In this document: piece after piece, positions 1-22,330 of the stretch | Layout of the letters: each line of letters begins with the position of its first letter | Numbering within the stretch: the stretch's first letter is position 1 | Assembly (NCBI GenBank): GCA_050250895.1 | Contig: JBFWNU010000001.1 | Location: forward strand, 2,406,210-2,470,209 | DNA: 64,000 nucleotides | From: Vulcanimicrobiota bacterium | GTDB lineage: Bacteria; Vulcanimicrobiota; Xenobia; Xenobiales; JADMJV01 | Reading direction: 5' to 3' | Made by a program: the position numbers and the translations under genes | The notes under the pieces: generated by a model | What the model was told of the DNA's origin: nothing | The model's input: the letters and a program-made list of their open reading frames with translations, nothing else | The model's database searches: none

Positions 1-402
1 CTGCCAGCATCGGGGTGCCGGGATTGTCTCTCCAGCTGATGGCGGGGTCCATCATCCCCGCCGCCAACATCCCGAGAATCCCGCCAGCAAATACACCGAT
101 GACAAGACCGCCCAGGGCCGGCTGAGCGCTGCGAAGAGCGATCCCCACGCCGACGGCAGCGCCGGCGCCCGCTCCGATGCCGGCACAGGTCTTCATGCAA
201 GCTTCGCTGCCGAACCACTCGTAGCGTTCCGACTTGTGCTGAGCGTAGCGATACATGTCGTAGACGGTTTCGCCTCGGGTCTTTCCAAGGGTAACCAGAT
301 CCTGGCTGATGGTGCCGGCCAGTTGCTCGTCACCCTTGCTGAGGGCGGCCTGCTGTCGTCTGCGCAGTGCGTCCATGGCCTGTTGGCGGGGCATTGATCC
401 AA
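1..402 (-). CDS. hypothetical glycine-zipper membrane protein (3' end beyond window); paralog of 465..1262
   Basis: Reverse translation from ATG at 402 (SD 'aggag' upstream) gives MKVGSMPRQQAMDALRRRQQAALSKGDEQLAGTIS..., followed by a Gly/Ala-rich TM segment. About 60% identical to the neighbouring gene's N-terminus. Confidence 0.55.
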
Positions 403-464
403 CTTTCATGATGTTTCTCCTAGGTAGTGTGTGCGTGATCCGAAGTTGGACGGGGTTTACCAGG

Positions 465-1262
465 CTATTTGGTGACGGGCAGGGATTGGTCGCCGACGCG
501 CACTTCGTCTTGCATCCAATCCAGGTCGACCTGGCTGGTGCTGGCCTGCAGATATTGTTTGAGTTCTTCGGCGCTCAAGCGCCGGCTCAGCAGGCTGTGT
601 AGCGAACCGATGGTGGCACCGTTGCGGTTCTCGACCGCCCAGGTGTGCAACTGGCTCAAGCCCATTTCTGAGTGAGCCGAGAAATATTTGGCCCCCCGAT
701 CGAGCTGGAAGGCCCTGGGCAGATCGCCCAGGTCAGAGTACCTCTGATGGTCCTGGGTGAGTTGCTCGAGAATCTCGCCCCGGGAAACCACGGGTAATGG
801 CGGGGTAGGGTTCTGACCTTCGCGGGCCAGCAAGACGCTGCTGCGCTCGAGGGCGGCGAGGATGGGGGCGCCAGGATCCGACATGTTCATGGTGAACATC
901 GCCACCATGGTAGCGGCCATCACTCCCCCAAGCCCTCCGAAGACGGCGCCGGCTACGAGGCCTCCCAGCACTGGCTGGGCGTTGGCCAGACTGACTCCGA
1001 CTCCTACGACGGTCCCCAGCACTGCCCCGGCCTTGGCCCCACGGCCCAACATCTCCGGCTCACTCCAATATCGAAAAACCTCCGACTTGCGCTGAGCGCC
1101 GTTGTACATGTCGTAGACGGTGTCGCCGCGGACGCCCTGTAGAGTGGCCAGGTCGGTGCTGATAGTGCCGGCCAGAGTTTCGTCGCCCTCGCTGAGGGCT
1201 TTTTGCTGCTGTCTGCGCAGCGCTTCCATCGCCTGGGAGCGAGGCATCGATCCAACTTTCAT
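465..1262 (-). CDS. hypothetical glycine-zipper membrane protein
   Basis: Internal Met of the 349-aa ORF (MKVGSMPRSQAMEALRR...), preceded by 'acaggagaacacag' SD. GxxxG-rich TM segment (GAVLGTVVGVGV...GGLVAGAVFGGLGG). The upstream ORF extension merely translates the tandem DNA repeat. Confidence 0.6.
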   Translation of the reverse strand: MKVGSMPRSQAMEALRRQQQKALSEGDETLAGTISTDLATLQGVRGDTVYDMYNGAQRKSEVFRYWSEPEMLGRGAKAGAVLGTVVGVGVSLANAQPVLGGLVAGAVFGGLGGVMAATMVAMFTMNMSDPGAPILAALERSSVLLAREGQNPTPPLPVVSRGEILEQLTQDHQRYSDLGDLPRAFQLDRGAKYFSAHSEMGLSQLHTWAVENRNGATIGSLHSLLSRRLSAEELKQYLQASTSQVDLDWMQDEVRVGDQSLPVTK

Positions 1263-1354
1263 CTGTGTTCTCCTGTGTGTGTCAGTAGTGAGAAAGCTGG
1301 ACCATGTCAGTGTAGCGGCTGAGGCCGGACTCCGGGTTGCCGGATTGTAAAAAA

Positions 1355-1790
1355 AAGGAGCGCTCGCTGCGCTCGAGGGAACAGGAGCGGCCTGCGGCCG
1401 GGCAAAGGAGCGAACTGAGCTGCGCTCAATTCGGGAGAAGGAGCTCATCGCTGCGCTCGAGGGAACAGGAGCGGCCTTCGGCCGGGCAAAGGAGCGAATT
1501 GAGCTGTCGCTCAATTCGGGAGAAGGAGCTCATCGCTGCGCTCGAGGGAACAGGAGCGGCCTGCGGCCGGGCAAAGGAGCGAACTGAGCTGCGCTCAGTT
1601 CCAGAGCGGCTTCGCCGCTCTTTTCAGCCGCAGGCTGCTCCCTGTCGACGCGCAGCGTCGAAGTCTCCGCGCGAAGCGCACGGCTCCTTCTCCCGACGAC
1701 GCAGTCGGCGCTCCCTGTCGGCCGCAGGCCGACGTCTCCGCGCGAAGCGCCCGGCTCCTTCTCTCGGCGGCGAAGCCGCTGCTCCCCGCT
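1355..1790. repeat. complex intergenic repeat: ~84-bp unit x3 in direct tandem (1355-1606) followed by degenerate inverted copies (1610-1790)
   Basis: Unit 'aaggagc..cgctgcgctcgagggaacaggagcggcctgcggccgggcaaaggagcgaactgagctgcgctcaattcgggag' repeated three times with a few substitutions. 1620-1790 holds reverse-complement-like copies (cgctgcgcgtcgacagggagcagcctgcgg; ctccttctcccg). Confidence 0.8.
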
Positions 1791-2136
1791 AAGCGGCGTA
1801 TTCGGTCCACATGCAGTTGGCGATCCAGTCGGCCAGCTGGGCTTTGGCTTTGGTGTCGGCCTGGTGAAAGCGCACTCCCACCACTACGGTGTCGGCGCCG
1901 GCCTCGGTCTGCCACATCTGGCGGGCGGTGACTTTGACCACTTCGCCGTTGCTCAGTTCGAGCTGCAGCTGCAGGAAGGGGCCGGCTTCGGCTTCGCGGC
2001 GAGAGACCAACAGGCGGGCACCCGAATAGCTCAGGTTGATGAGGCGGCCAGTTTGGAATTGCATGCTGGCGGCGCGGTAACGCAGGCTCAGGTTCTGTTT
2101 GATGCGGGTGGACCAGCGGCGGTTCTCGAGTTTCAT
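1789..2136 (-). CDS. PilZ-domain protein (c-di-GMP binding)
   Basis: RRWSTR (RxxxR) and NLSYSGARL (D/NxSxxG) motifs at PilZ-typical spacing; 115 aa. Confidence 0.7.
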   Translation of the reverse strand: MKLENRRWSTRIKQNLSLRYRAASMQFQTGRLINLSYSGARLLVSRREAEAGPFLQLQLELSNGEVVKVTARQMWQTEAGADTVVVGVRFHQADTKAKAQLADWIANCMWTEYAA

Positions 2137-2265
2137 TTGGGACCTCCAGGAAGATTTCTTGCTCTTAGTCTACGGATTTGCCGCCCTCGGTTCAGTGCCG
2201 ATGGTCACCGCCCAACGGTAGCGACCGACACAGGGGAGCCGCCCGCAAGCACGAAGGCCGCCTGC

Positions 2266-2958
2266 ATGGCGACAACGATGGTGCTCGATTCACGCTTCAA
2301 CGGCCCGGCCGATTCGGCCAATGGTGGCTACACTTGCGGGCGGCTGGCCGCCTATTTGTCGGGGCCGGTCGAGGTGACTCTGCGGGTGCCCCCGCCGCTG
2401 GGCGTCGAGCTGCAGGTCGAGCAAGAGGGCGACTGCGTCAGGTTGCTCGAGGGCAACACCCTGGTGGCCGAAGCCCGGCCCGCCACGCTCGAGCTGGTCT
2501 GTCCGCCTTCACCCGGGCTGGCCCGGGCCCAGGAGGCGGCCAAGAAATACGTCGGTCACGATCACCATCCGTTTCCGACTTGTTTTGTTTGTGGGCCGGG
2601 GCGGCCCGAGCACGAAGGCCTGCGCATCTTTGCCGGGCCCATCGGCGGCGGCAAGGTGGCCGCTCCCTGGACGCCTGATCCTGGTCTGGGTCGAGACGGG
2701 TTCGTACGACCCGAATTTCTCTGGTGTGCCTTGGACTGTCCTGGCGCCTTTGCGGTGGAGCAGAGTGAAGAGTCTCCCCGCGTCCTGGGCCGGCTGGTAG
2801 CCTCGCTCGAGCAGCCCTTGCCGGTAGCTCAGCCGGCCGTGGTGGTTGGTTGGTCGTTGGGGGTCGAGCGCCGCAAGGCCTTCGCCGGCACGGCCATCTA
2901 CGATCAGGCCGGCAAGCTGTGCGCCCGGGCCCGCGCCACCTGGATCGCCCTGCAATAG
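2266..2958 (+). CDS. hotdog-fold thioesterase family protein (PaaI/DUF4442-like)
   Basis: Internal Met of the 364-aa ORF (the upstream part is antisense to the PilZ gene). TCFVCGPGRPEHEGLRIF motif typical of thioesterase-superfamily proteins. Confidence 0.55.
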   Translation: MATTMVLDSRFNGPADSANGGYTCGRLAAYLSGPVEVTLRVPPPLGVELQVEQEGDCVRLLEGNTLVAEARPATLELVCPPSPGLARAQEAAKKYVGHDHHPFPTCFVCGPGRPEHEGLRIFAGPIGGGKVAAPWTPDPGLGRDGFVRPEFLWCALDCPGAFAVEQSEESPRVLGRLVASLEQPLPVAQPAVVVGWSLGVERRKAFAGTAIYDQAGKLCARARATWIALQ

Positions 2959-4071
2959 ATGGAGCGCTCTCTCGAGAGCTTTCTTGACAGCGAGCGCCAA
3001 CTCGGCCAGCTCGACTCGAGCGGTACCTTTACGCTCGACGCCCACCGCAGCCGACTCAAGCTGGCCCAGTTCCAGCTGGCCAAACGCAGCTACTGGGTGC
3101 TCAAACTGGTGCAAGCCGCGGTTGGCTCGGGGGCCGACCAGGTCGAAGTGACGCTAGGGCGCGACGTCGACTGGGTTCGCTTCGAGCCGACCCTGACCTG
3201 TGAACTCGACCAGCTCATCGCCCACCTCCAGCAACCGGAAGGTCGTTCTGGTTGGCTGGGCGACTTCGCCACCGGCGTCAACGCCATTCTCAGTCAGAGG
3301 CCGAAGACCGTGCTGGTGGGCAGTCCCGACTGGAACTTGCGTCTGGCCGACGGTCATCTTCAGGTCTTTCCGGGCACCTCACCGATGCCGGGTTGGACCG
3401 TGGCGGTGCGCTCGCGCGGAGGCGTCATGGCCTGGGTGGCCGGCGATTCTCGCCACCGGGCCGAAATGGCCGAGGCGATCACCACCCGCTGTTGTTATTG
3501 TCCGGTTCCTATCCTGCTCGACCAGCGGGTGCTGATGCGGGGGGAGCTCAATCCCGACTGGGGGACCCACCCGCGGGGCCGCCGAGGTCAGGAGTTATCT
3601 CGTTTGTTTTATCTGGCTCAGGCCCATCTCGGCCAGGCCAACCGGTTGGCTCGGCTGCGCCCCACCGCGGCCATGCCCGACGGTGGTATCGGTGTTCGTC
3701 ATTGTGACAGCCTGTATTTTCGCGAGGCTACCTCGGACCTTTGTGCCTTTCTGGCCGTACCGCTCGGCTTGCGCGGCCCGGGGCGAGTCGACTTTGTGCA
3801 GTCGGGAGTGATCGTGGACCGGCACCACCTCGATCTGGGAGTCGAGGGCGCTCAGGTGGTGGTGGACGGTCCCGGGCTCTCGGTCGACCTTTCTCACTTT
3901 CAACTGATCGAGAACCCCGCTTACCAGGCTCTGGTGGCGCGCTTGCGCGAAGAGGTCAGGTTGCTGGTCGAAGTCGCCTCGGGCCATCTCGACTTGCTGG
4001 GCCAGGATAGCGCCAACCTCGAGAAGTATGTGCGCTTTCGCCTGGCTCTGCTGAAGGAGCCCGAGTTCTAA
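2959..4071 (+). CDS. hypothetical protein
   Basis: 370-aa ORF; ATG immediately follows the upstream stop (coupled). No recognisable motif. Confidence 0.55.
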   Translation: MERSLESFLDSERQLGQLDSSGTFTLDAHRSRLKLAQFQLAKRSYWVLKLVQAAVGSGADQVEVTLGRDVDWVRFEPTLTCELDQLIAHLQQPEGRSGWLGDFATGVNAILSQRPKTVLVGSPDWNLRLADGHLQVFPGTSPMPGWTVAVRSRGGVMAWVAGDSRHRAEMAEAITTRCCYCPVPILLDQRVLMRGELNPDWGTHPRGRRGQELSRLFYLAQAHLGQANRLARLRPTAAMPDGGIGVRHCDSLYFREATSDLCAFLAVPLGLRGPGRVDFVQSGVIVDRHHLDLGVEGAQVVVDGPGLSVDLSHFQLIENPAYQALVARLREEVRLLVEVASGHLDLLGQDSANLEKYVRFRLALLKEPEF

Positions 4072-4758: not shown

Positions 4759-5733
4759 TTAAAGGTCGGTGTCGAGCAATTCCTCGATGCTCATGTCCGA
4801 GAGCCCCAGTTGGCGTCCGACCCTAAGCACGAAATCCCGCTCGGAGGGGTGCTGGTGACCATCGGCTCGAGCCAGGGCGATGAGATCGATGATGGCTGCC
4901 AGCTTTTGGCCCGGTTGCTCTTCAAAGGCGGTGAAGTCGATGGGAGGGGACTCGCCGCTCTCGAGGTACCCGCGCAGCTCACGCCGGGCGGCAGCCGGCA
5001 GTTCGGGGCTCTCGACCAGGGGTAACAAGAAGCGGCGCTCGAGGGCGTGCAGCTCTTCATCGGCCTGGGCCAGGCTGATCATCAGCTTCAGACGTTCGAA
5101 TTCAAGCGGGCTGACCGGCCCTTCGACCGACGGGTCCGGCTCGACGATGCGAACCTCTTGACTGAGCAGCAGGGTGGCGTGCTGAGCGACCTTGCGACTA
5201 AGATGGTTGGCCCAGATGCCTAAGGCCGAGCCGGCGGCTTGAGGTACGAAGCGAACCAGGACCGACCTCAGGATGCGCTCGCTGATTTGCTCGGCCACTC
5301 TCTGGTTGAGTTCGGCCGCCAGCCCCGCCGAGCCGGTTTGCACGGTCAGGCCCTCTTTGCCCACGCTCAGCACGCCTTCGGCTCGACCGTCGACACCGAG
5401 CAGCACGATGCCCATCAGCAATTCACCGGGGACTTCGGTATGGCCGTGGATGGCGGCCAGATCATAGACCAATCGCAACTGGTCACCCACCACCTCGACC
5501 ACCACCGGCACGATGGCCAGCACCGCCCCGGGCCCCCCCGTCAATTGGCTCGACAGCACTCGCTGAGCGCAGCTCTGGGCGCATTGTTCGACCAGGCGCC
5601 CGACGGCTTCGAGCGGGGGAGCGGGATGACGTTGGTAAAATTCGGACCGCTCGGCCAGCACCGAGGCCACCACGCTGGGCAGCTTCGAAGTGATGGCCGC
5701 CTGGGTCTGGGCGGCGAGGCTAGAATAGGACAT
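4759..5733 (-). CDS. hypothetical protein with TerB-like C-terminal region
   Basis: Internal Met (MSYSSLAAQTQ...) of the 389-aa ORF. C-terminus (DGHQHPSERDFVLRVGRQLGLSDMSIEELL) resembles TerB/DjlA-N-like helical domains. Its start lies divergent from the kinase gene. Confidence 0.5.
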   Translation of the reverse strand: MSYSSLAAQTQAAITSKLPSVVASVLAERSEFYQRHPAPPLEAVGRLVEQCAQSCAQRVLSSQLTGGPGAVLAIVPVVVEVVGDQLRLVYDLAAIHGHTEVPGELLMGIVLLGVDGRAEGVLSVGKEGLTVQTGSAGLAAELNQRVAEQISERILRSVLVRFVPQAAGSALGIWANHLSRKVAQHATLLLSQEVRIVEPDPSVEGPVSPLEFERLKLMISLAQADEELHALERRFLLPLVESPELPAAARRELRGYLESGESPPIDFTAFEEQPGQKLAAIIDLIALARADGHQHPSERDFVLRVGRQLGLSDMSIEELLDTDL

Positions 5734-5851
5734 GGCCAGGGCTTCTCTTTGGCCAGGCCGCGTCCTTTTGAGAGGGCCAAAGGCTCCCTTTCGCGGTGCG
5801 TCGAACTCTAGTGGAGTGGGCGGTTTCTGGGTGTCTCGAATTGGCCTCGGG

Positions 5852-7138
5852 ATGGGGCTGCTGTGGCTGCTCGCCGGTGGCGTTCGGGCTGACGACTGGC
5901 ATTCCGTCGTTTTCGAGAGCAAACCCAACGGGGCCCAGATCGTGGACCTCTACGACAACGAGATTGGCCGCACGGGTGCCCCCTGCCGCTTGAATCTCGA
6001 TAATTTCAGCGAAGTGGTGGACCTCGAACTGCGTGCGCCCGGCTATCGGACTTTCGCCTTCTCGATGCGCAAGAGCAAGTTCTCGAAGGCCGAACGCTTG
6101 CCTGAAGAGGGCGCCTATGTGCTCGAGCCGGTCAGCCCCGGGGCCATGGTCGGGCTCTTCCTGCGGCGCTGGTGGTGGGTCTTGCTGGCCGGGGTGGCGG
6201 GGGCGACCCTGGCCGCGAGACGACATCTGACGGTGCGCGCCCGGGCGCGGCGGGAGCGGGCCCTCGAAACGCTCGAGGCCAGCGCCAACGGTTCTTTGGC
6301 CATGGCTCGGGTGGGAGGCTACGTCGTGGTCGACAAGTTGGGCGTAGGCGGCATGGCCAGCGTTTACCGGGCGGTGCCCGAGAAGGACCCCGAGCGAGGC
6401 CAGCCGGTGGCGATCAAGGTGCTTCACCGAGAGCTTTCCAGTGATCCAGACTATCGCGAACGGTTTTTGAGGGAAGTCAAGATCTGCGCGGGCCTCAACC
6501 ATCCCTCCATCGTGCGGCTGTATGACTGGGGCCAGTTTCAGCATGCGGGTCAGGAGCGGGATTACCTGGTCATGGAGATGGTCGAAGGTTGCTCTTTGCG
6601 CCAGAAGATGGCCTCCGAGGGCTTGCCGGCCAGTGAGGCGATGGCTTTCCTCGAGCCCATCTGCAAAGGGGTGCACTTCGCTAATTCGCGCGGAATTGTG
6701 CATCGCGACTTAAAACCCGAGAACATCATGGTCACCACGGCCGGGCGGGTCAAAGTGATGGACTTTGGTCTGGCCCGCAACCAGAACCTCGACCGCATCA
6801 CCAAGACCGGCGTCACCCTGGGCACCCCCGCCTATATGGCGCCCGAGCAGATTCGCGGTCAGGATCCCGAGGCCACCATCGACCAGTATGCGGTGGGTGT
6901 GCTCGCCTATGAACTGTTCACCGGTCGGCTACCCTTTCAGGACCAGGACCCTATCACGCTGATCTACCGTCATCTTGAAGAGGAGCCGCCGCCGCCTCGA
7001 CAGTTCAAACCAGACCTGGCCGAGAGCCTCAATCAGATCCTCTTGCAGATGCTCGAAAAAGATCCCGAGTTGCGTTTTCGCGACCTGGAGGAAGCCTTGC
7101 GAGCACTGCAGTCGGCAGTGGGGGTCGAAGTTGGTTGA
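5852..7138 (+). CDS. receptor-like Ser/Thr protein kinase (Hanks type): N-terminal signal peptide + PEGA-like extracytoplasmic domain, single TM, C-terminal kinase
   Basis: Signal peptide MGLLWLLAGGVRA; PEGA-like segment SKPNGAQIVDLYDNEIGRTGAPCRL; TM GLFLRRWWWVLLAGVAGATLAA. Kinase motifs: GVGGMASVY, AIK, HRDLKPEN, DFG, APE. Start chosen to leave room for divergent promoters; the 5732 ATG is the alternative. Confidence 0.75.
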   Translation: MGLLWLLAGGVRADDWHSVVFESKPNGAQIVDLYDNEIGRTGAPCRLNLDNFSEVVDLELRAPGYRTFAFSMRKSKFSKAERLPEEGAYVLEPVSPGAMVGLFLRRWWWVLLAGVAGATLAARRHLTVRARARRERALETLEASANGSLAMARVGGYVVVDKLGVGGMASVYRAVPEKDPERGQPVAIKVLHRELSSDPDYRERFLREVKICAGLNHPSIVRLYDWGQFQHAGQERDYLVMEMVEGCSLRQKMASEGLPASEAMAFLEPICKGVHFANSRGIVHRDLKPENIMVTTAGRVKVMDFGLARNQNLDRITKTGVTLGTPAYMAPEQIRGQDPEATIDQYAVGVLAYELFTGRLPFQDQDPITLIYRHLEEEPPPPRQFKPDLAESLNQILLQMLEKDPELRFRDLEEALRALQSAVGVEVG

Positions 7139-7139
7139 G

Positions 7140-8726
7140 ATGGCCGTCACCGACTCGGGCGCTCGTCGTCTTTTCGACAGCGCCTTGCGCTTTCTGGTCG
7201 AGGCCCTGAGAGCCGACCGAGCCCTGGTGCTCTATGGCGAGACCAACCTCGAAGTCAAGGCCGCCCATGGCTTCAATCCCCGCACCGCGCTGGTCGGCGG
7301 CCCCCTGAGCATGGCCTTGCTCGAGCGGGTCCGCAGCAGCGCCGCCCCGCTGATGTTGGCCGACGCCCGTCGAGATAAGACAGTGGGTGACCATTTGAGC
7401 GTTGAACTGTCGGGTCTGCGCTCGGTGGTGTGCGTGCCTTTGCTGGCGCCCCGGGGCGAGGTGGCGGGCCTGCTCTATGGCGACAGCGTCGAGCACAACA
7501 GCCTGTTCGGCAATGAGCAATTGAGCAAACTGGTCGATTTCGCCAGCCGGCTCGAACGGGCTCTCTTTTCGGGGCAGGCTCTCGAGTTGCCGGCCGCCCA
7601 AGCGCCAAAGCGCCGCAAGCGAGTCGAGGTGGCTCCTGCCTCGCCCGCCCAAGAGGTGGCGCGGCCCCTGGCGATGGGTGAGCCGTCCGGACTAGGGCTG
7701 CGCGACTCGAGCAACTTCTTCCGATCGTTGGGGCTGATGGTGCAGACCGGGCTACCGATTCATCGAGGCCTGGCTTTGTTGGCCGAACATCGCGACTTGC
7801 CGGCCCTGGCCGGCGTATCGGGCTTTCTACTCAACGACCTGCTCAAAGGCAAGAGCCTGTCGTCGAGCATGGAGCGACTGCCGGCTAGCTTTGCGCCCTT
7901 TGTGGTCCAGCTGGTTCGAGCGGGTGAGAATTCCGGCTCGCTGCCTCACGTGCTGGCCGCCCTGGCCGCCCACCAGGAGCGCTCGGAGCGGCTCACCCTG
8001 AAGCTTCGCAGCGCTCTCACCTATCCGGCCGCGGTGCTGGGGGTGACGCTAGTCCTGTTGGCGGTGGGCCCGCCTTATCTACTCAAGAGCCAGATTCAGC
8101 TGATTGAGGGTTCGGGGGTGGCCCTCGGTTGGCTGACCCAGGCTCTCATCCTGGCCTCGAAGATCGTGGTCTCGCCACTTTTCTGGGGGGTCGCCGTGGC
8201 CGGGCTGGTGGGGTTGGCGGTGGCCGCCCGGACCGGCTTGCGAAACCCCGACCAGCGGCGGCGTTTGGCCGTGATGGGGCTGAAGGTTCCCTTGCTCGGT
8301 TCAGTGTTGCGGTTGGCCGCCGTCAGCCGCTTCGCCAGCGCCCTATCGCTGCAACTCAAAGCGGGTGTGCTGTTGGCCGATGCCCTCGAACAGGCGGCCC
8401 AGGCGGCTGCTCACCCGCTCTTGCTCGAGCGGATGCCTGTGGTCTTGAGTCGCCTCAAGAACGGGGCCGGTCTGGCCGAATGTCTGGCGGAAGCCCAACT
8501 CTTTCCTCGCTCCTTCCTGGGTATCATCGAAGCGGCCGAGTCCACCGCCAGTGTGCCGGGCATGCTCGATTGGGTTCATCAGCACTACGAACTCGAAATC
8601 GATTCGGGACTATCAGCCCTAACGGCCGCCCTCGAGCCTCTGGTGTTGGGCCTGGTGGGCGGAGTGGTCGGCCTGACGGTGCTGGCCAGCATGGTGCCGG
8701 TGATCAAGATGCTGGAGGTGCTCTAG
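7140..8726 (+). CDS. GAF domain fused to a GspF/PilC-type (T2SS/T4P) inner-membrane platform protein
   Basis: Internal Met (MAVTDSGARR) 2 nt after the kinase stop. N-terminal GAF-like region (LVLYGETNLEVKAAHGF...VCVPLLAPRGEVAGLLYGDS). Two T2SSF repeats (FFRSLGLMVQTGLPIHRGLALL...GENSGSLPHVL; ...IIEAAESTASVPGMLDWV...) and the typical C-terminal TM (LVLGLVGGVVGLTVLASMVPVIKM). Confidence 0.75.
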   Translation: MAVTDSGARRLFDSALRFLVEALRADRALVLYGETNLEVKAAHGFNPRTALVGGPLSMALLERVRSSAAPLMLADARRDKTVGDHLSVELSGLRSVVCVPLLAPRGEVAGLLYGDSVEHNSLFGNEQLSKLVDFASRLERALFSGQALELPAAQAPKRRKRVEVAPASPAQEVARPLAMGEPSGLGLRDSSNFFRSLGLMVQTGLPIHRGLALLAEHRDLPALAGVSGFLLNDLLKGKSLSSSMERLPASFAPFVVQLVRAGENSGSLPHVLAALAAHQERSERLTLKLRSALTYPAAVLGVTLVLLAVGPPYLLKSQIQLIEGSGVALGWLTQALILASKIVVSPLFWGVAVAGLVGLAVAARTGLRNPDQRRRLAVMGLKVPLLGSVLRLAAVSRFASALSLQLKAGVLLADALEQAAQAAAHPLLLERMPVVLSRLKNGAGLAECLAEAQLFPRSFLGIIEAAESTASVPGMLDWVHQHYELEIDSGLSALTAALEPLVLGLVGGVVGLTVLASMVPVIKMLEVL

Positions 8727-10324
8727 TGAAACAGCGCGGCCTCAGTCTGGGCACGGTCATCCTGGTGGTGAGCTTGTTGGCGACCCTGGGGCTGACCCTG
8801 GCCGCCGCCAGCGTTTCTCACCTGCATCTGATGACCCGGGCCAGCAACGCCCGCCGGGCCGAGAGCGTGGCTCGTTCGACGGTGGCTCAGGCGGTCGAAC
8901 ACATCTTGAGTTCCGTCGATCAGCGCTACGGCACCGCCGGGGAGAGCCTCGAGGTAGAGTTTGCCAGTGGGGTCGGTTATCTCAGCTTCGATCCCGACGA
9001 AGCCCGCCGCCACGGACTGCCGCGGAGTTGGAACAACATCGAGTCAAGCACCTCTTTGACCACTCCCGAGTCGGTCGTAGTGCCGGGCGAGTCGATCTAT
9101 CTGGTGGCCAGCGGCACGGTGGGCGGGGTCACCCGGCGGGTCGAAGCCATCTATCACATGGGGTCGTTTCCCTATGCCCTGGCTGCGGCCGGACCCATCG
9201 TGGCCCGGGGCGGGCTGACCGTCTCGGGGCTGGGTGAGAACGACGGTGGCGGCGGCCTGCCACCGCGAATCGAGTTGGCTCCGGCCGATCTGCACTCGAA
9301 TGCGCCCGGAGCCAAAGCCATCGAATTGGGAGCCGACACCCATATCGGGGGAGACGTGCAGGCAGTGGGAGATGTCTTTCTCGATCCGGCCGCGCCGGCG
9401 GACTCGATCGAGATTCAGGGCGAACTGCGCCATCGCGCTTCGGTGGTGGCCCTGCCCGCCTTCGAGCCCGAGCACTACGACCCGTCGGTGCTGGGGCGTA
9501 GCTTCGAGCCTTTCGACGACTCGCCCTATAGCGGCGAACTAGAAGTAGAGGGAGTGGCTCGGGCCAATCACGGCCTCGAGGTCAACGGCGGTCTGAGCCT
9601 GGACTCTGCCCTGTTGTTTGTCGAGGGCGACCTGATCGTCAACGGTCCCCTCAAAGGCAAGGGCATCCTGGTGGTGACCGGCCGGACCGTCATTCGGGGA
9701 GGGGCCGATTTCCAGACCGGCAACAAGCTGGCCCTGATGAGCCAGGGGCCGGTGGAGATTTCGGGCAGCGGTCAGGCGGGCTCGTTCTTCCAGGGGATGA
9801 TTCACACCCACTCGAGCTTTCAAGCCGACCGCATTACCGTGGTCGGCTCGTTGATCGCGGCCGGCAACCAGGCCGATGTGGTCTCGCTGCGCGAAGTCCG
9901 CATCATCCGGCCCGAGGGCTCGGGGGCCGTCGAGGTGGCCCTGGGTGGCGGTACCAATCCCGCCGGTGATGTGGAAGTCAGTGCCAGTGTGGCCATGCCC
10001 GGGGGCTTCAGCCGCTTGCTCACCCTCAGAGGCAGGGTGAGCGGACAGGCCTTTCGCGGAATCTGGCTGGTGGACGGAACACCGGTGCTCGACGAGCCTC
10101 TGCGCATCGACAAACAGTTGGCCGAGACTCTGACCTACTTCATTTCACAGATACCAGAGCTACGCGGGGCCATTCGTCCCCGGGATGCGGCCGACCAGCT
10201 GGCCAATCAACTCATCAACGGAGGCCCCCAAAACACCGGTAATCCGGCCGTCGTGATGGCCGACCCCAGCCGGCTGCTCAGCCCGCTCGAGCGCATGCGG
10301 CTGCTGGTCTGGAGAACCCAATGA
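8726..10324 (+). CDS. PilX-like pseudopilin-related protein (large minor-pilin-like)
   Basis: GTG start overlapping the upstream stop by 1 nt. N-terminus VKQRGLSLGTVILVVSLLATLGLTLAAASV resembles the PilX N-terminal domain (no Glu+5). ~530 aa, Gly-rich beta-type repeats. Confidence 0.65.
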   Translation: MKQRGLSLGTVILVVSLLATLGLTLAAASVSHLHLMTRASNARRAESVARSTVAQAVEHILSSVDQRYGTAGESLEVEFASGVGYLSFDPDEARRHGLPRSWNNIESSTSLTTPESVVVPGESIYLVASGTVGGVTRRVEAIYHMGSFPYALAAAGPIVARGGLTVSGLGENDGGGGLPPRIELAPADLHSNAPGAKAIELGADTHIGGDVQAVGDVFLDPAAPADSIEIQGELRHRASVVALPAFEPEHYDPSVLGRSFEPFDDSPYSGELEVEGVARANHGLEVNGGLSLDSALLFVEGDLIVNGPLKGKGILVVTGRTVIRGGADFQTGNKLALMSQGPVEISGSGQAGSFFQGMIHTHSSFQADRITVVGSLIAAGNQADVVSLREVRIIRPEGSGAVEVALGGGTNPAGDVEVSASVAMPGGFSRLLTLRGRVSGQAFRGIWLVDGTPVLDEPLRIDKQLAETLTYFISQIPELRGAIRPRDAADQLANQLINGGPQNTGNPAVVMADPSRLLSPLERMRLLVWRTQ

Positions 10325-14707: not shown

Positions 14708-14906
14708 CGGTTTTTAGTCTAGTTTCAGGGTCGGTTGGTAGCTTCGCAAACAGAGACCGCTGCCGGTTGAACCACGCCTCTTTTGGTTGCGGTGCAGGGT
14801 GATAGTCCCCTGTGGAAGGCGTGACGATGAAGGTTCAACCGCTGACGAAACAGCAGGCCATCGGTCGCTTGCAGGCCGAAGAAGCCGCTTTTTGCAAGCC
14901 AATCAA

Positions 14907-15797
14907 ATGCCCGAGGCCACCGCCATCATCGAGGCCCGCGAGACGCTCGAGCGCGGCCGCGGCGACAATCTTTGGGAGATCTATAGCCAGGCCCGTCAGG
15001 ACGAGGCTCGGTGGCAGCGAGTCAAGGCCGTGGTCTTGCCGCGCGAGCAGACGGGCCGCGAACAGGCCAGGACCTTTCTCGCTCTAACCGGCGCCGGACT
15101 GGCTCTGGGGGGCATCGGCAACTTTGTGGCCATCGGCGATCCCCGTCATGCCCTGGTGTCCACGGCGCTCTGTGGAGTGATGGTGCTGGCTGACGGCATG
15201 GTCATGGCCCTCTCCGACGATTTCAAGACCGATTTCAGCCGCACCCTGGGAGCCTTCAACGCTACCACCGCCTGCGTCGGTCTAGCCACGAACCATTGGG
15301 TCTCGGGAATCGCCGCCGGGGGCGCGACCCTGGCGGTGGCGATCGCCGTTGCGAGCCTGGGCCACTTTCAGGCTGGTAAACATCGCCAGATTCAGGCTGT
15401 GGTCACCGACCATCGGCAGCTCTTCGCGGCGCCCCCCAGCGCCTCGGCCCAACTCGCTTCGGCCATCACCAAGAACGACATCCTCGAGACCGTCACCAAG
15501 CGCAGCCAGCGAGCGATCGAGGAGGGCGACTACGCCAGCGCCATGGACGCTCGCGAGGACCTCCAGCGATTGACCGACCTCAAGGGAGACACCTTTCACG
15601 AGATGTTCCTGGCCAGTCGCGGCCTCGAGCGGGACCGAGAGCTGCTGACCCGATATGCCGAGGCGATCCTCGAGGATGCGCGCAGTCGCGACGACATCAA
15701 GGCTATCGTTGCCGGCGAGCCGTCGGTGGCCCAGCTTTTGATTGGCGACGACGCTGTCGACGTCGGCGACCAGCACTTGCCGGTCGTGTCCAGTTAG
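14907..15797 (+). CDS. hypothetical membrane protein
   Basis: Internal Met (MPEATAIIE) of the 336-aa ORF. Two or three predicted TM segments (LALTGAGLALGGIGNFVAI; GGATLAVAIAVASLG). Start uncertain. Confidence 0.4.
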   Translation: MPEATAIIEARETLERGRGDNLWEIYSQARQDEARWQRVKAVVLPREQTGREQARTFLALTGAGLALGGIGNFVAIGDPRHALVSTALCGVMVLADGMVMALSDDFKTDFSRTLGAFNATTACVGLATNHWVSGIAAGGATLAVAIAVASLGHFQAGKHRQIQAVVTDHRQLFAAPPSASAQLASAITKNDILETVTKRSQRAIEEGDYASAMDAREDLQRLTDLKGDTFHEMFLASRGLERDRELLTRYAEAILEDARSRDDIKAIVAGEPSVAQLLIGDDAVDVGDQHLPVVSS

Positions 15798-16418: not shown

Positions 16419-16434
16419 GGTGATCGGTGTCACG
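16419..16434. promoter_or_regulatory. CRP/FNR-like palindromic site GGTGA-N6-TCACG, conserved upstream of cassette copies A and C
   Basis: ggtgatcggtgtcacg matches the TGTGA-N6-TCACA architecture at 4/5 + 4/5. An identical 16-mer occurs at 24228-24243. Confidence 0.4.
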
Positions 16435-16603
16435 CGGCAAAAGGAGTAGAGATAGCTACATGTCGCAGTCTAGATGTACCATTGGTTCGCAGAACGTGTA
16501 TTTTGTTGGTTGTATGGGTGTCCAAAGTTTGAAAAATAGTAAACAGAGGTTTTGTGTGGGGGGTAAAGAAGCACTGGGTTCGAGCATCCTTGGGGAGGTG
16601 GTC

Positions 16604-19600
16604 TTGGTTCGAGCGTCTCGTTTCTTTCTTCTTTTGCTGGGCTTGCTTTTGGTTGGCTGTGAATCCGGCCAACTGGTGGATGAGATCGAAAGAGGGCAAT
16701 CTCGGCCAATCTCCCATCGAAATCGTGTGTTGGCCGAATTGACTCTGCAAACCGAGAATGGCCCCTACAAGCTTGTGAAGGGGAGGGGGCTCATTCCGGC
16801 CGAAAATAGCCCGGTGCCCCAACCGCGTACGGGGGATGGCGTTCGCGCCAGAACCGGCGAGAGCATTCTGGCCGCGACTGAGCTGCCCCCGGAGTATTTT
16901 TTCGGAGCCCACTATCAGTTCGATGTGGACAAACGCAACTTCTTCATCGGCGAGGAGCCGGTAGGGACGGCCTGTGTTCGCTACAATAGCGAAGAATTCA
17001 ATAATCTTCCCCACAGCAGCGAAGCCTATCGCTTTGGCAACCTGGAGTTCGCTAGCCTGGGGGTGGCTGTCGGGCCTAACCAGTTTCCAGGCACCGCCTC
17101 GACCACCATGGTGGTGAGCACGCCCGCCGGGATTGAAGAGATCGAGATCCCTAAGATGGACGGCGACACAATCACCGTTTCACCACCAATCACCGTTCGG
17201 ATGGACTATGCCTACACCCCCATCCCCAATTCTAGCCTCTACTATGGGCGAACCGAGACGTTCGTCAACGGAAACTCGGTAGCGATCAGTTCTTCAAACT
17301 TCACCATTGGCGTGAGCGTCGAGCTGCCCTCGGTGCATGGGATCTATACTACCGAAAATCACGCCGAGCGACAGACCTATGCCAACGCGCCTTTCCAGCT
17401 TCAGGACAGCTTTGACGTGGGCAGTCAGGTCTTTGCTCGCAAGTTGGAGTTTGCAGATGACTTCACTCCGATGGAGTTCACGCCGGGCCAACCAGTGACG
17501 ATCACCAACAGCTTCCGCTGGGACTCCGGCCCAACTGATGTCGTCGATGCCCGGTGGGAGGTCATCGTCGAAGACACCCTGGAGAATCAGTTTACGAGAT
17601 TTCAAGAAGGCACCGGGACCGACATTTCGGCCACCTTCGACCTGTCTGATGTTTTGGCTCGCGGCCAGGTGCCCCGGCGTTACGTTCTCATCCCTGCCGG
17701 CAGCCCACTCGAGGCCAGTATCAAGCAGGAGCAGGCACGGTTGCGAGCTCGAGGCGAGGACATTCGCGCCCAGACGGACGTGATACCCCTGACCTATCGG
17801 GTCATCGCGAGCGCCGAGGCCTATCCTCGTAGCCGCGTCTTTCCGCTGGTCGGCTCGCAGTTTTATCAGGCACGCTACTACGCGGTGAATAGCCAGATCT
17901 CACCGGCCTTGCGCATCCGCGACATCAACATTGATCCCAACCCGTTCGAGCCCAGCCCCCCGGAGGTGGCCCCCGAAGACCGTCAGGTGGCCGTCATCTC
18001 GGCCTACGTCGACGCCAATGGCTTCGACGGTGGCTATGTGTTGGTCGAGCCTCGAATCTATGACCAGGCCGGCAACCTGGTGAAGACGTTCGAGGACCAG
18101 TATCCCATCGACTACGTCGAGTTGGAATGGGACGGCTATGACGATGAGGGAAACCCACTTGACCCGCAGGAGTTTCTGGTGGAGCTGCAAGCCCACGTCT
18201 GCGATTTCAGCGGACCGGCTCGCGAGATCTTGGCCGAGATTGCGCCCCAGACTCTGCAATTGGGTAGTTGTTCTCTGACGGGGGATGTCGCCCAGGCGCC
18301 CTTAGTGACCGGAGGGGCCCAGGGCGGTGAACTCAAGGTCTATGCAATCAACAAATTGATCGCCTGGGGTAAGAATCCGACCAGTGCTATCGTGACTAGA
18401 GCTCAGGAGGGCTTTCTGCGGGATGTCTATGCCGCTGGTCCTACGGCCCCGGGTGATCCCCAGCCCGCAAAGCTGAAATTGGAAGCCAGCAACCTCGGGC
18501 CGGTTGGAGGTGACGTTACTGTCGTCGCACGCGGGAATGTGAGCCAGGTGGACTCAGTAGCCGTCACACTAACAGACGACGACCACGACGGAACTTACAC
18601 GGGTGAGTTGTTGTTGACACCAGATTTCATTAAGGTCGGCGGGCCACTCACGGATGTGCAGGGTGAAGCGGGACGGATGACCTTCAGTGTCGGCGAGCGG
18701 CTCAACAATGAGGGTGGAGTTACCGCCGCGATCTTTGCCAACCTTCTCTCCGCCCTCGGTCCCGAATTCTACCCTTACCCCAAGCCCGCGATTTCTCTAG
18801 GCAAATTCGAAGAAGATTTGCTCGGGAGCCAGCTCACTCTCGCCAATGACGATGAGGCCACCGCCACGGCAAACAACCTGGCCAGTACTGGCTTTGAGGC
18901 GCTAACCCTAACGCTCAGGGTAGGAAGCGATGTGGTGGTTACAACCAAGGCCAAGGTTCGCCATCCCGCTGATGTTCTATTCTGGAATTTCCATGGTCTA
19001 CGCCACGGCTCACTCAGCCCCGAAAGCGAGATTGCCAAGAGAGAGAACCGGCTTCCTACGATACTCCTCACGCCCGAAGACTTTGTAGTGAAGCCGGTCG
19101 CAAGAACCGTAATGTTTGCCGCTTGCGATGTGCTGTGCCTGAACGACTACAACGGTGCGTGGCCCAACGAGTCGAACTTTGGCGGACGCCGCTGGTATGC
19201 CGCGATGGACACCCCGGGACACAACACAGTCTTGCTAGGATTCACGGCCCAGACAGGTGCAACTCTTACAACCTCTGAGGTCATCGAACTCTACGGAAAA
19301 AGGATTGATGACTATATCGCGGCGGGCGAAACGGACAGGAGAAAGATTCAGGCGCTGGCCTGGGTTAGGGCGAATCTCGAGGTTGGTCTCAACCTTCAAG
19401 CCGACGGCTCAACGGGTCCTGTGGATGCACTAAGAAGCCTGCAACTTCGTGCTTGCGCCTATGCAGCCGATAGCACGGGAGAGTACTTTTACTACATCCC
19501 TGTGCAGCATCGGCCCACTCAGGACCTTGCTCTGGTCTTGCAGAACGTCGAGACCACACCCGTGGTCAAAACTGCCGAGGGCATCTACAGAGTGCGCCGC

Positions 19601-19705
19601 GAGCATTGGGGTGAACCGGTCCTTTTCGACGTTAGGAGGCCAAAAGATGCACAACTTGTACTCGAAGTGGTGCGACACAACGATGGGACGGTGGAATTGC
19701 GATGA
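16604..19705 (+). CDS. large secreted lipoprotein (cassette A gene 1) with FlgD-Ig-like domain
   Basis: TTG start 5 nt after GGAGG. Lipoprotein signal MVRASRFFLLLLGLLLVGC (lipobox LVGC). FlgD-Ig-like block IRDINIDPNPFEPSP...YVLVEPRIYDQAGNLVKTFEDQYP...ELEWDGYDDEGNPLDPQEF. About 1033 aa; the start is inferred from conservation with copy C. Confidence 0.65.
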   Translation: MVRASRFFLLLLGLLLVGCESGQLVDEIERGQSRPISHRNRVLAELTLQTENGPYKLVKGRGLIPAENSPVPQPRTGDGVRARTGESILAATELPPEYFFGAHYQFDVDKRNFFIGEEPVGTACVRYNSEEFNNLPHSSEAYRFGNLEFASLGVAVGPNQFPGTASTTMVVSTPAGIEEIEIPKMDGDTITVSPPITVRMDYAYTPIPNSSLYYGRTETFVNGNSVAISSSNFTIGVSVELPSVHGIYTTENHAERQTYANAPFQLQDSFDVGSQVFARKLEFADDFTPMEFTPGQPVTITNSFRWDSGPTDVVDARWEVIVEDTLENQFTRFQEGTGTDISATFDLSDVLARGQVPRRYVLIPAGSPLEASIKQEQARLRARGEDIRAQTDVIPLTYRVIASAEAYPRSRVFPLVGSQFYQARYYAVNSQISPALRIRDINIDPNPFEPSPPEVAPEDRQVAVISAYVDANGFDGGYVLVEPRIYDQAGNLVKTFEDQYPIDYVELEWDGYDDEGNPLDPQEFLVELQAHVCDFSGPAREILAEIAPQTLQLGSCSLTGDVAQAPLVTGGAQGGELKVYAINKLIAWGKNPTSAIVTRAQEGFLRDVYAAGPTAPGDPQPAKLKLEASNLGPVGGDVTVVARGNVSQVDSVAVTLTDDDHDGTYTGELLLTPDFIKVGGPLTDVQGEAGRMTFSVGERLNNEGGVTAAIFANLLSALGPEFYPYPKPAISLGKFEEDLLGSQLTLANDDEATATANNLASTGFEALTLTLRVGSDVVVTTKAKVRHPADVLFWNFHGLRHGSLSPESEIAKRENRLPTILLTPEDFVVKPVARTVMFAACDVLCLNDYNGAWPNESNFGGRRWYAAMDTPGHNTVLLGFTAQTGATLTTSEVIELYGKRIDDYIAAGETDRRKIQALAWVRANLEVGLNLQADGSTGPVDALRSLQLRACAYAADSTGEYFYYIPVQHRPTQDLALVLQNVETTPVVKTAEGIYRVRREHWGEPVLFDVRRPKDAQLVLEVVRHNDGTVELR

Positions 19706-21555
19706 AAACGAAGATCGGGATGGTGACATTGACGCTTTGCCTTCTAAGCGGGGTCTGGGCTCAGGAGCCAGAGTTCCCGGCAGCGGACCCCGTGCGCCGC
19801 GCGATTCAGAGTTATGAACTACATGATTTGGATCGTGCCCTGGCCGAGTTCCTGGCCCTTGCAGAGAGTCATCGGGGAACTCCGGTGGGCTCAAATTGTC
19901 TCTTCTGGGCGTCAGATACTGCTCTACTCGCGGGGGACCAGGAGCAGGCACTGGCCATCCTTAACCGCATCACGCAAGAATACGCTGGCACTCACATGGA
20001 GCTTTCGGCAAGGCTGCGGCTCATTGAGCTTGTGCCTCCGAGCACTGGAGACGGAGCGACAGAAGCTTACGACGAACTCGCACAGCAGAATGGGGCACCT
20101 CCCCTTGCGGTGTTGATTGACCCGGCCCGGAAACTAGAGAACACGATCGCAATCCGGGCGTTGCCAGAAGAGTCGAGGAAGGGTCTCAGGTTGCTATACG
20201 TGACAGTCCTTGGCGAATTGAGTTTTCATCCCCCGCAGGAGGCCGCTGTCCTCGGGCAGGTTTTGCGGGGAGCGTTGGACCGTGATGGCGGCGCCGAGTT
20301 CTACGGCTCGTTGTATAACACCGCGAGGCGTTCACACGAGCGACGCCATCTCTGGTCGCCCACTCAGGAAGACTTTCAGAATCCCGTCGTGTCGCCTCTG
20401 AACCCTAGCGATGGTAGCACTGTCGCCCCAGGCGGAATGCTAGAGGCCCAGCTTTACATGGAAGACTTCTATGCTATGGGATTGGATCTGGCTACGCTGC
20501 GTGTTTCTCTGGACGGTCAGGATGTTACCGATTCTTCCACTTTCGAGTGTTCGGCCGGCCCGGAGTTCGTAGACGGGCAACCCTGGGAGGTGATTACCGT
20601 CCGCTCGCCCATGGCGAACCTATCGAACGGAACACACACGGCCACCGTTACCTGTCAGGTATACCTCTATCCGGGCCAGGGCCCGGGGCTGACGACGAAG
20701 ACCTGGTCGTTCACTATCGCCAATCAGGCCTCTGAGGCAGCGCTCTATCCATCGAAGGACTCGACCCTCCGACTCCGCGACCCCCATCTCAACGAGGGAG
20801 CCAACCCTAGACTCATCCTGGAGAAGATCCAGGGTAAGACCACTCACGCCCTGGTGGGCTTTGACCTGTCCCAACAGAACCTGACCGGCCTGACTTCGGC
20901 CAGCCTGGTCTTCACCATCGACCCCAGCGACTCTCCCACCGGCTGGGGCAATGGGCGCAACGTCCTCGCAGCCCCGATCTCGACCGGCTGGCTGGAGGGG
21001 AACGGCGTCGACTTCGGCGTGCCCAACGCGCAGAAGACCAGCGGGTCCGGCCCGGGCGTGACCTGGTTCAGTCCTGTCGATGAAGACATCAGCAACAACT
21101 ATGCCAACTCGGCCGTGAATTGGAACGGGGCCGGTGCGGCCAGCGGCCCTCCGACAGCCTTGGCGGTGCAAATCCATAACCATCAAACCGGAGAGGTCTC
21201 CTTCGATGTCACCCAGGATGTCCTCAACGGATCCTCGAGCTGGTTGGTGAGAAGAGAGGACGAGAACGTCGGCTCGCAAGTCCACTTCTACTCCAGGGAA
21301 GGTGGCGGAGCCTCAGCCGGCCCGCGCCTGGTCCTTCACTACGGTGCCTCGGCCAACAAACCCGCAGGAGACGCTCTGTTGGCCAGGGCCTGGGACACCC
21401 CGGTCGCGGTCCTTCGCAATCTCGCCGGGCTCGGGCTGTCGGGTGGCCCGATGACAAACTTGCTGATCCTGCAAGCCCGTTCGTCGGGCCTCGACATCCT
21501 GAGTGCGGGATTGCGCAGTCTGGTCGCCCGGCGCGAGATGGCCCTGCTCCTTTAG
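19702..21555 (+). CDS. secreted protein with TPR-like N-terminal region and DNRLRE-like C-terminal domain (cassette A gene 2)
   Basis: Signal peptide MKTKIGMVTLTLCLLSGVWAQ; ATGA overlap with gene 1. C-terminal pattern SKDSTLRLRDPHLNEGANPRLIL...ALVGFDLS...SASLVFTID...GWGNGRNV fits the DNRLRE/CBM96-like signature (D-x-T-L...N-x-G...L-x-L...F-D-L-S...A-S-L). Confidence 0.7.
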   Translation: MKTKIGMVTLTLCLLSGVWAQEPEFPAADPVRRAIQSYELHDLDRALAEFLALAESHRGTPVGSNCLFWASDTALLAGDQEQALAILNRITQEYAGTHMELSARLRLIELVPPSTGDGATEAYDELAQQNGAPPLAVLIDPARKLENTIAIRALPEESRKGLRLLYVTVLGELSFHPPQEAAVLGQVLRGALDRDGGAEFYGSLYNTARRSHERRHLWSPTQEDFQNPVVSPLNPSDGSTVAPGGMLEAQLYMEDFYAMGLDLATLRVSLDGQDVTDSSTFECSAGPEFVDGQPWEVITVRSPMANLSNGTHTATVTCQVYLYPGQGPGLTTKTWSFTIANQASEAALYPSKDSTLRLRDPHLNEGANPRLILEKIQGKTTHALVGFDLSQQNLTGLTSASLVFTIDPSDSPTGWGNGRNVLAAPISTGWLEGNGVDFGVPNAQKTSGSGPGVTWFSPVDEDISNNYANSAVNWNGAGAASGPPTALAVQIHNHQTGEVSFDVTQDVLNGSSSWLVRREDENVGSQVHFYSREGGGASAGPRLVLHYGASANKPAGDALLARAWDTPVAVLRNLAGLGLSGGPMTNLLILQARSSGLDILSAGLRSLVARREMALLL

Positions 21556-21739: not shown

Positions 21740-22330
21740 GTTTGCCGCTTGCGATGTGCTGTGCCTGAACGACTACAACGGTGCGTGGCCCAACGAGTCG
21801 AACTTTGGCGGACGCCGCTGGTATGCCGCGATGGACACCCCGGGACACAACACAGTCTTGCTAGGATTCACGGCCCAGACAGGTGCAACTCTTACAACTT
21901 CTGAGGTCATCGAACGCTACGGGAAATGGATTGACGACTATATTGCGGCGGGCGAAACGGCAGGAGAAAGATTCAGGCGCTGGCCTGGGTTAGGGCGAAC
22001 CTCGAGGTTGGTCTCAACCTTCAACCCGACGGCTCAACGGGCCCTGTGGATGCACTAAGAAGCCTGCAACTTCGCGCTTGCGCTTATGCAGCCGACAGCA
22101 CGGGAGAGTATTTCTACTACATCCCTGTGAAACACGAGCCTACCAAAGACCTGGACCTGATTCTCCAGAATGTGGAGACTACTCCGAGAGTCAAGACCGC
22201 CGAGGGCATCTATAGAGTGAGCCGCGAACATTGGGGTGACCCGGTCCTTTTCGACCTTAGGAGGCCCAAAGATGCGCAACTTGTACTCGAGGTGGTGCGA
22301 TACGACGATGGGACGGTGGAATTGCGATGA
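21740..22330 (+). pseudogene. 3' fragment of a cassette gene-1 copy (duplicate of 19114-19705), frameshifted
   Basis: First ~180 nt identical to 19114 onward, then ~90% identity. A 1-nt deletion (aacggcaggag vs aacggacaggag) splits it into two ORFs (21756..22058, 22046..22330). No 5' part or signal peptide. Confidence 0.7.

Follow-up and report, generated by a model that had tools for sequence, protein, structure and literature searches.

An array of inverted mini-hairpin repeats between a PilZ-domain gene and a glycine-zipper gene in a Vulcanimicrobiota lineage

Introduction

Bacterial intergenic regions contain several classes of repeats built from short hairpins. The BIME/REP elements of Enterobacteria and the BOX elements of Streptococcus pneumoniae lie between genes and are non-coding; they are mosaics of linkers and short palindromic hairpins, occur in tandem, include inverted parts and vary in copy number among strains. 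They are transcribed in operons or 3' UTRs, where they act as mRNA stabilisers or terminator-like barriers. The array described here lies between a PilZ-domain gene and a gene for a glycine-zipper membrane protein (hereafter GZ1) in the MAG 'Vulcanimicrobiota bacterium' (NCBI tags AB7S38_30310/30315). It shares the mosaic construction, the tandem and inverted arrangement and the strain variability of these elements, and may share their transcription and effects on mRNA. By contrast, BIME/REP and BOX elements are dispersed in 100–600 near-identical copies per genome, whereas the array is known from one locus and its stems differ between modules. REP elements also have a cognate RAYT transposase, while no RAYT was seen within the 64-kb stretch of DNA analysed (hereafter the window). 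The MIRU VNTRs of Mycobacterium resemble the array in having tandem units of 40–100 bp, located in spacers of co-oriented genes and variable in number between strains. They differ in that they occupy about 40 loci, contain short ORFs that are coupled to their neighbouring genes, and have neither mini-hairpins nor two inverted arrays.

Two classes of RNA are also comparable. Like the array, the CsrB and RsmX/Y/Z RNAs are repetitive and modular in build, with numerous A(N)GGA motifs on short hairpins or in between. However, the array has no Rfam match and no promoter, carries half of its motifs on each strand and belongs to a lineage outside the Gammaproteobacteria. Type III toxin–antitoxin systems (ToxIN, CptIN and TenpIN) have the same order on one strand, i.e. 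tandem RNA repeats, an intrinsic terminator and a downstream gene. Their repeats are direct only and 34–47 nt long, and the downstream gene encodes a ToxN/AbiQ endoribonuclease, whereas here inverted arrays with units of 71–85 nt are followed by an orphan glycine-zipper gene.

At the level of single hairpins, the closest motif is d(GCGNAGC), which is known mainly from physical chemistry and from phage origins. To our knowledge, no array of GCGNAGC mini-hairpins has been described as a bacterial intergenic repeat. Mini-hairpins whose d(GNA) loop is closed by a C-G pair are extraordinarily stable (PMC3201870, PMC13037366), and the middle base N of the loop may be any base (PMC13037366). Ten exact heptamers of this type, all closed by C-G, form the tips of the array modules described below.

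Organization of the array and its flanking genes

The repeat feature fills the 526-bp spacer between PilZ and GZ1 (1263–1788), and all three flanking genes (PilZ, GZ1 and its paralogue GZ2) are on the minus strand (Table 1). An initial annotation had correctly placed the repeats between the PilZ stop (1789) and the start of the next gene (1262). Its description of the site as the 5' region of the glycine-zipper gene is true, but by the direction of transcription the site is equally the 3' region of PilZ. The PilZ stop codon forms the loop of a small hairpin (1786–1796, CCGC-TTA-GCGG on the minus strand).

Table 1. Position and strand of the array components and flanking features in the window.
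Feature	Position	Strand	Description	Basis
Array A	1355..1602	+ (GGAG-rich sense)	units ~1346-1432, 1433-1517 and 1518-1602; period 84-85 bp	
Array B	1624..1788	- (GGAG-rich sense)	partial B0 1788-1766, B1 1765-1695 and B2 1694-1624; period 71 bp	
Central hairpin	1603..1621 (with tail to 1626)	+	8 bp AGAGCGGC-TTC-GCCGCTCT, then TTTTC	
Intrinsic terminator (predicted)	1349..1374	-	stem GAGCGC/GCGCTC (1374-1369, 1363-1358), loop AGCGA, then C + U8 (1356-1349)	terminator scan
Spacer 5' of GZ1	1263..1348	-	86 nt: hairpin 1331-1344, CA-rich leader, Shine-Dalgarno AGGAG	sequence
PilZ-domain gene	1789..2136	-	115 aa; Pfam PF07238, E 8e-11	ORF list
GZ1, glycine-zipper membrane protein	465..1262	-	265 aa; orphan family	
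GZ2, GZ1 paralogue	409 to before position 1 (window edge)	-		ORF list

The repetition is real and far beyond chance. Tandem Repeats Finder reported array A at 1355–1601 (period 85, 2.9 copies, 94% matches, score 450), in agreement with the three tandem copies of ~84 bp noted initially, and array B at 1634–1786 (period 71, 2.1 copies, 81% matches, score 215). The inverted degenerate copies of the annotation were likewise recovered: 18 inverted pairs join 1384–1583 to 1611–1780 with 74–100% complementarity, and blastn of 1346–1606 against 1607–1790 gave matches in inverted orientation only (best E 3.7e-5). The symmetry is that of whole inverted arrays and not of short termini. Copies within array A are 76–98% identical in the repeat search (94–98% for the units), a near-identity that points to recent expansion, while arrays A and B are ~75% alike, array B being a diverged inverted relative of array A. 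Both ends of the array are independently backed by short-read contigs of the same sample, one of which (L001) confirms 1703–1788 and the other (L127) the terminator sequence; the interior is read from the window alone.

Same-sense alignment reveals that the 85-bp units of array A and the 71-bp units of array B are homologous and follow one shared grammar: perfect GC-rich hairpins of 4–9 bp with a three-base loop, three per unit, are separated by GGAG-rich purine linkers (i.e. GGGAGAAGGAGC, GGGAACAGGAGC, GGGCAAAGGAGC, ACAGGGAGC or GAGAC). A unit of array A consists of GGGAGAAGGAGC, a weak hairpin, GGGAACAGGAGC, GGCC-TGC-GGCC, GGGCAAAGGAGC and the 9-bp hairpin GAAYTGAGC-TGC-GCTCARTTC, and a unit of array B of GGGAGAAGGAGC, GCGC-TTC-GCGC, GAGAC, a 7-bp hairpin with a TGC loop, ACAGGGAGC and a 4–5 bp hairpin with a TGC loop. 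The ~42-bp internal sub-repeat of the initial annotation holds in part: the motif AAGGAGC-N5-7-GCTGCGCTC appears two times in each unit, with offsets of 51 and 34 bp instead of ~42, and the GGCC-TGC-GGCC hairpin sits, by eye, between the two occurrences. The sub-repeat thus corresponds to two of the three hairpin-plus-linker modules of each unit.

Loops read C-TGC-G or C-TTC-G on the GGAG sense and C-GCA-G or C-GAA-G on the CUCC sense. The GGAG sense is the plus strand for 1349–1621 and the minus strand for 1624–1788, so that the CUCC-rich sense of array A, with its GCA/GAA loops, is the minus strand. Both the GGAG/CTCC counts and the strand partition of the GCGNAGC motif place the switch of the purine-rich strand at the central hairpin. 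Among the ten exact GCGAAGC/GCGCAGC heptamers, six are on the minus strand left of 1615 and four on the plus strand right of 1650, and the motif is enriched ~20-fold in the array. Only the middle N of the loops varies (TGC/TTC in the GGAG sense), between units as well as between strains, which agrees with the described mini-hairpin motif (PMC13037366). Perfect three-base-loop hairpins of the form C(TKC)G / C(GMA)G number 13 within the 460 bp of the array; the same scan found five in the remaining 63.5 kb of the window and, in 864 kb of DNA from unrelated bacteria, never more than two per 460 bp. The central hairpin with its TTTTC tail forms a weak terminator-like site for plus-strand transcription.

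Linkers and stems behave differently between the two arrays. The linker GGGAGAAGGAGC is identical at 12 of 12 positions in A and B, while nearly every base pair of the hairpin stems has changed without loss of perfect pairing. This turnover of stems against a fixed linker suggests, from the alignment, constraint on linkers and loops, and a simple structured spacer gives no account of it.

A further short match concerns array A and GZ1. The 14-nt sequence GCTGCGCTCGAGGG occurs once per array A unit (1366–1379, 1450–1463 and 1535–1548) and as an identical stretch inside the GZ1 coding sequence (840–853; blastn E 0.089), where a plus-strand array RNA would be antisense to the GZ1 mRNA. The match is probably due to chance, as the relative L002 has one mismatch there.

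Folding and predicted transcription and termination

The long imperfect hairpin proposed initially is possible on either strand. The 537-nt region folds at -282 kcal/mol on the minus strand and -298 on the plus strand, compared with shuffle means of -232 and -253 (z -6.6 and -6.0, respectively). In the full minus-strand minimum free energy fold, 112 pairs are long-range and 62 are local. When the array halves are folded alone, a clear gain in stability over shuffles is confined to the CUCC sense (z -2.9 and -2.9), the values for the GGAG sense being -1.5 and -0.95.

The predicted terminator, with six pairs (five of them GC) and a 5-nt loop, is the only strong intrinsic-terminator motif of the region, and its stem is kept in the full-length minus-strand fold with a pair probability of 0.54. 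It is a remodelled version of the outermost array A unit, in which GATGAGCTCCTTCTCCC of the inner units is replaced by GAGCGCTCCTTTTTTTT. Read on the minus strand, the change is from GAGCGCAGCGATGAGCTCCTTCTCCC to GAGCGCAGCGAGCGCTCCTTTTTTTT; this is the one place where the terminal unit differs from the inner units, and it falls exactly where the stem improves and the U-tract arises. A scan for sigma-70-like promoters over 1–3000 on both strands gave no sites. Given the terminator motif, the empty promoter scan and the orientation of the genes, the simplest reading of the sequence is that the minus strand is transcribed from PilZ onwards and that this transcription stops at ~1349.

Rather than a new regulatory system, the array is most likely a structured spacer or minisatellite peculiar to this lineage. 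It is probably ordinary in kind, i.e. an intergenic hairpin repeat or VNTR like those of other bacteria, confined to a single lineage and with an unusually clean mini-hairpin grammar. Our preferred explanation, held tentatively with a probability of roughly 0.45, is more specific: the array would be a slippage-prone hairpin minisatellite that is transcribed as the PilZ 3' UTR and intercistronic spacer, where it acts as a structured terminator and insulator. RNA polymerase leaving PilZ would cross array B, then the central hairpin and then array A, and the RNA would fold locally into numerous GC hairpins and/or back on itself in one long imperfect structure before transcription ends at the hairpin–U8 terminator in the remodelled last unit (1349–1374). 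The outcome would be a PilZ transcript with a heavily structured, exonuclease-resistant 3' end, and the array might also insulate or attenuate the downstream glycine-zipper operon, as REP/BIME, BOX or MIRU elements do elsewhere. In the DNA itself, replication slippage and unequal recombination could be driven by mini-hairpins of the GCGNAGC type and by the near-identity of the units, and these processes would account for the recent 85-bp expansions, the single older inverted duplication and the reshuffling of modules between strains.

Several observations count against this explanation. The 440-nt array far exceeds what a terminator needs, a plus-strand RNA could end at the central hairpin followed by UUUUC, the apparent constraint on linkers and loops speaks against both this explanation and its neutral version, and one PilZ homologue, described below, has no array. 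Should the array be nothing more than a structured spacer or minisatellite, its worth would be practical: it would serve as a strain-typing marker for this Vulcanimicrobiota lineage, account for the breaks of short-read assemblies here and offer a natural case of GCGNAGC mini-hairpin arrays driving repeat instability.

Variation among strains and possible neutral expansion

Sampling of the lineage is very thin: a search of 5.8 billion proteins gave two relatives of PilZ, and cluster members added two contigs. Three strain-level starts of the array are known (i.e. the window, L123 and L128/L129), each directly after the same PilZ stop codon, and the PilZ genes of L123 and L128/L129 are 94.8% and 92.5% identical to that of the window, respectively. 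In L123 the array begins TAG CAGGGAGC GCCGAC-TTC-GTCGTC GGGAAAA, where the contig ends. In L128/L129 it begins TAG CAGGGAGC CGC-TGC-GCGTCGAC AGGGGGC GCCGAC-TGC-GTCGTC GAGAT TTCGACGC-TGC-GCGTCGAC AGGGAGAGCGGCTG, again up to the contig end. Hairpin modules of 15 and 19 nt are identical across these strains and the window and differ in order and number, which bears out the earlier suggestion that the region is prone to expansion. Tandem units of 10–100 bp that vary between strains, as found here, are those of a VNTR or minisatellite. Sharing among three strains implies that the array is old enough to be common to them and that its modules are reshuffled much faster than its flanks. In all three strains the onset of the array coincides with the last PilZ codons.

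The 58%-identical PilZ homologue (66% nucleotide identity; contig L124) has no array, and an unrelated gene follows 40 nt on. The array is therefore dispensable to PilZ function as such. In this contig (401–1631) two CBS-domain genes adjoin the PilZ homologue, and the unrelated gene after it encodes 246 aa (partial); synteny with the window is not conserved, so that the contig cannot date the origin of the array.

The array could instead be a neutral or selfishly expanding minisatellite, produced when the PilZ terminator region was duplicated both in tandem and in inverted orientation; it would have no function beyond one terminator and persist only because hairpin-prone repeats keep regenerating. 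Such an origin differs from our preferred explanation only in that it grants no effect beyond the terminator, and we consider it unlikely, though a serious competitor. It would fit the confinement to one narrow lineage, including the absence from one of only two PilZ relatives, as well as the module order that differs between close strains, the near-identity of the array A units and the loss of the GGA motif from some L128 linkers (AGGGGGC and GAGAT). Where the two arms fail to pair, transversions (25) and many gaps outnumber G-U (12) and A-C (6) mismatches, which may mean that long-range pairing is not preserved. By contrast, perfect stems and conserved loops and linkers persist over the ~25% divergence between A and B, and the array is kept at the same site in three strains. 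Even so, template-switch correction of quasi-palindromes could yield perfect stems without selection.

Searches for further copies

Alternatively, the array could represent a single copy from a dispersed family of mosaic repeats (REP/BIME-, BOX-, NIME- or MITE-like), or be an iteron- or centromere-like array bound by a protein. The modular build of hairpins and linkers, the inverted arrangement and the intergenic site are compatible with this. So are the breaks in short-read assemblies, as contigs end inside the array in every sample (L001, L123, L127 at its start and L128/L129). L001 stops at the position equivalent to 1703 of the window, at a loop base that varies between G and T among strains and where no 31-mer is repeated in the locus. 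This break suggests either co-existing array variants in one sample or more copies elsewhere.

Searches argue against dispersal. Neither the unit, nor the linkers, nor the hairpin grammar has a second copy in the other 63.5 kb of the window (the source contig is at least 3.9 Mb long), and no near-identical copies of the REP/BIME kind were found there. In genome contigs, the loose pattern GAGAAGGAGC-N52-80-GAGAAGGAGC gave at least 119 chance matches, mostly coding EKE repeats, and none of the matches listed is array-like by blastn. The pattern GRGAGAAGGAGCYNNKCGCTKCGC had only two matches in JGI metagenome contigs, both coding and due to chance, and none in viral contigs, and blastn in distant mode found no match in plasmid and phage collections. 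The REP-like nature considered in the initial annotation thus finds no counterpart in the window or in the public collections searched. In addition, stems vary between modules, unlike in REPs, whose copies are nearly the same throughout a genome, and the neighbourhood of the array has no gene for a transposase, RAYT or Par protein. The flanks (ending in GGATTGTA immediately before A8 on one side and GCCGCTTAG on the other) carry no common direct repeat in a test for target-site duplication. A dispersed or protein-binding element is quite improbable. Contigs of other samples that carry glycine-zipper paralogues (L002, L003 and L130) start within genes or hold inter-paralogue spacers only.

Several further identities were rejected. 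The array is non-coding, as annotated, since periods of 84/85 and 71 bp would throw a reading frame out of register and a pseudo-protein translated from the array in six frames has no match among 5.8 billion proteins; a 349-aa upstream extension of GZ1 would cross the U8 terminator, and all homologues start with MKVGSMPR. A CRISPR was rightly dismissed at the outset, with units of 85 and 71 bp that abut head to tail without spacers and no cas-like genes among the neighbours examined. The target-site test and the inverted symmetry of whole arrays speak against a MITE, the defining proteins of a retron were not found nearby, and GZ1 and GZ2 have no match to the ToxN/AbiQ family of type III toxin–antitoxin systems in Pfam, NCBIfam or PADLOC.

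Purine-rich linkers and possible regulatory RNAs

Density of GGAG reaches 10 per 200 nt in the array, the maximum of the window (mean 0.83, sd 0.99). As in sponge RNAs with multiple GGA motifs, the GGA motifs sit in linkers between perfect hairpins, where they are predicted to be exposed. The GGAG-sense RNA (plus strand 1349–1626 and/or minus strand 1788–1624) could accordingly act as a sponge that titrates 30S subunits or a CsrA-like protein. Its ~15–20 A(N)GGA or Shine–Dalgarno-like motifs between hairpins recall the CsrB and RsmZ RNAs of Gammaproteobacteria, the linkers are the best conserved parts between A and B, and array A on the plus strand is bounded by an A8 tract and by a hairpin with U4. 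The linkers ACAGGGAGC and AACAGGAGC also resemble ACARGGA, the CsrA SELEX core. Against this, Rfam 15 searched over 1100–2000 at E<=10 gave only weak miRNA-like noise and no CsrB or RsmX/Y/Z (the gathering-threshold scan of the window found one tRNA only), and the promoter scan offers no site for a plus-strand RNA. Genes for csrA, fliW and hfq were not found in the window, by a tblastn test that is itself weak. Moreover, halves read in the GGAG sense show no more structure than their shuffles, the predicted fold of a minus-strand transcript would hide the GGAG half under the CUCC half, and some L128 linkers lack the motif. We regard a sponge as a distant prospect.

The complementary sense allows a multi-seed anti-Shine–Dalgarno sRNA derived from the PilZ 3' UTR, i.e. 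the minus-strand RNA of array A from 1606 down to 1349, which would pair with ribosome-binding sites of mRNAs in the manner of the UCCC-motif RNAs RsaE/RoxS and LhrC of Firmicutes and for which array B would be a built-in antisense mask. Nine GCUCCUU/UCCC tracts, predicted to be single-stranded, lie between stable hairpins on this strand, which also has the U8 terminator and a local array A structure better than shuffles; the host phylum belongs to the Bacillati by taxonomy, and, by eye, GCUCCUUUG matches seven of eight bases of CCUCCUUU, the 3' tail of the 16S rRNA. This purely sequence-based idea is very unlikely: any CUCC tract complements any Shine–Dalgarno sequence, array B would sequester the seeds in the predicted fold, and array A is known from the window strain only.

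Both proposals can be framed together as a modular decoy RNA in an uncultured Terrabacterial phylum, either a sponge that mimics GGA/Shine–Dalgarno sites or a nine-seed anti-Shine–Dalgarno sRNA with its own antisense mask, in which reshuffled modules would tune the number of exposed motifs. We consider this broader proposal improbable. If the GGAG/CUCC linkers do have a function, the array would be the phylum's first candidate for a sponge-type or multi-seed regulatory RNA; it lies beside a gene of the c-di-GMP-receptor type (PilZ).

Genomic neighbourhood

GZ1 has only four homologues among 5.8 billion proteins, each 265 or 266 aa long. Neither GZ1 nor GZ2 matches a family in Pfam, NCBIfam or PADLOC, apart from a weak similarity to the glycine-zipper model NF053611 (E 0.098). 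The family always occurs as two or three tandem paralogues of 263–266 aa that start with MKVGSMPR (window 465–1262 and 2–409; L002, L003, L127 and L130), and a CA-rich leader conserved among them (CACACACA...AGGAGAA-N5-7-ATG) lies upstream of each gene.

On the other side of PilZ, two back-to-back ORFs are divergent from it (2266–2958, plus strand, 230 aa; 2959–4071, plus strand, 370 aa). They match no family in the libraries tried, and both are kept beside PilZ in strain L123. Five large plus-strand ORFs further on (8129–10324, 14787–15797, 16427–19705, 19702–21555 and 22327–24078; 336–1092 aa) have no Pfam match at E<=1e-5. At 5732–7138 and 6975–8726 (plus strand), a Ser/Thr protein kinase adjoins a T2SSF (PilC-like) platform protein of type IV pili or type II secretion systems with an N-terminal GAF domain; their longest ORFs overlap by ~160 bp, and the starts are provisional. 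With the kinase and T2SSF genes less than 6 kb from PilZ, this may be a neighbourhood of pilus regulation linked to c-di-GMP or cyclic nucleotides.
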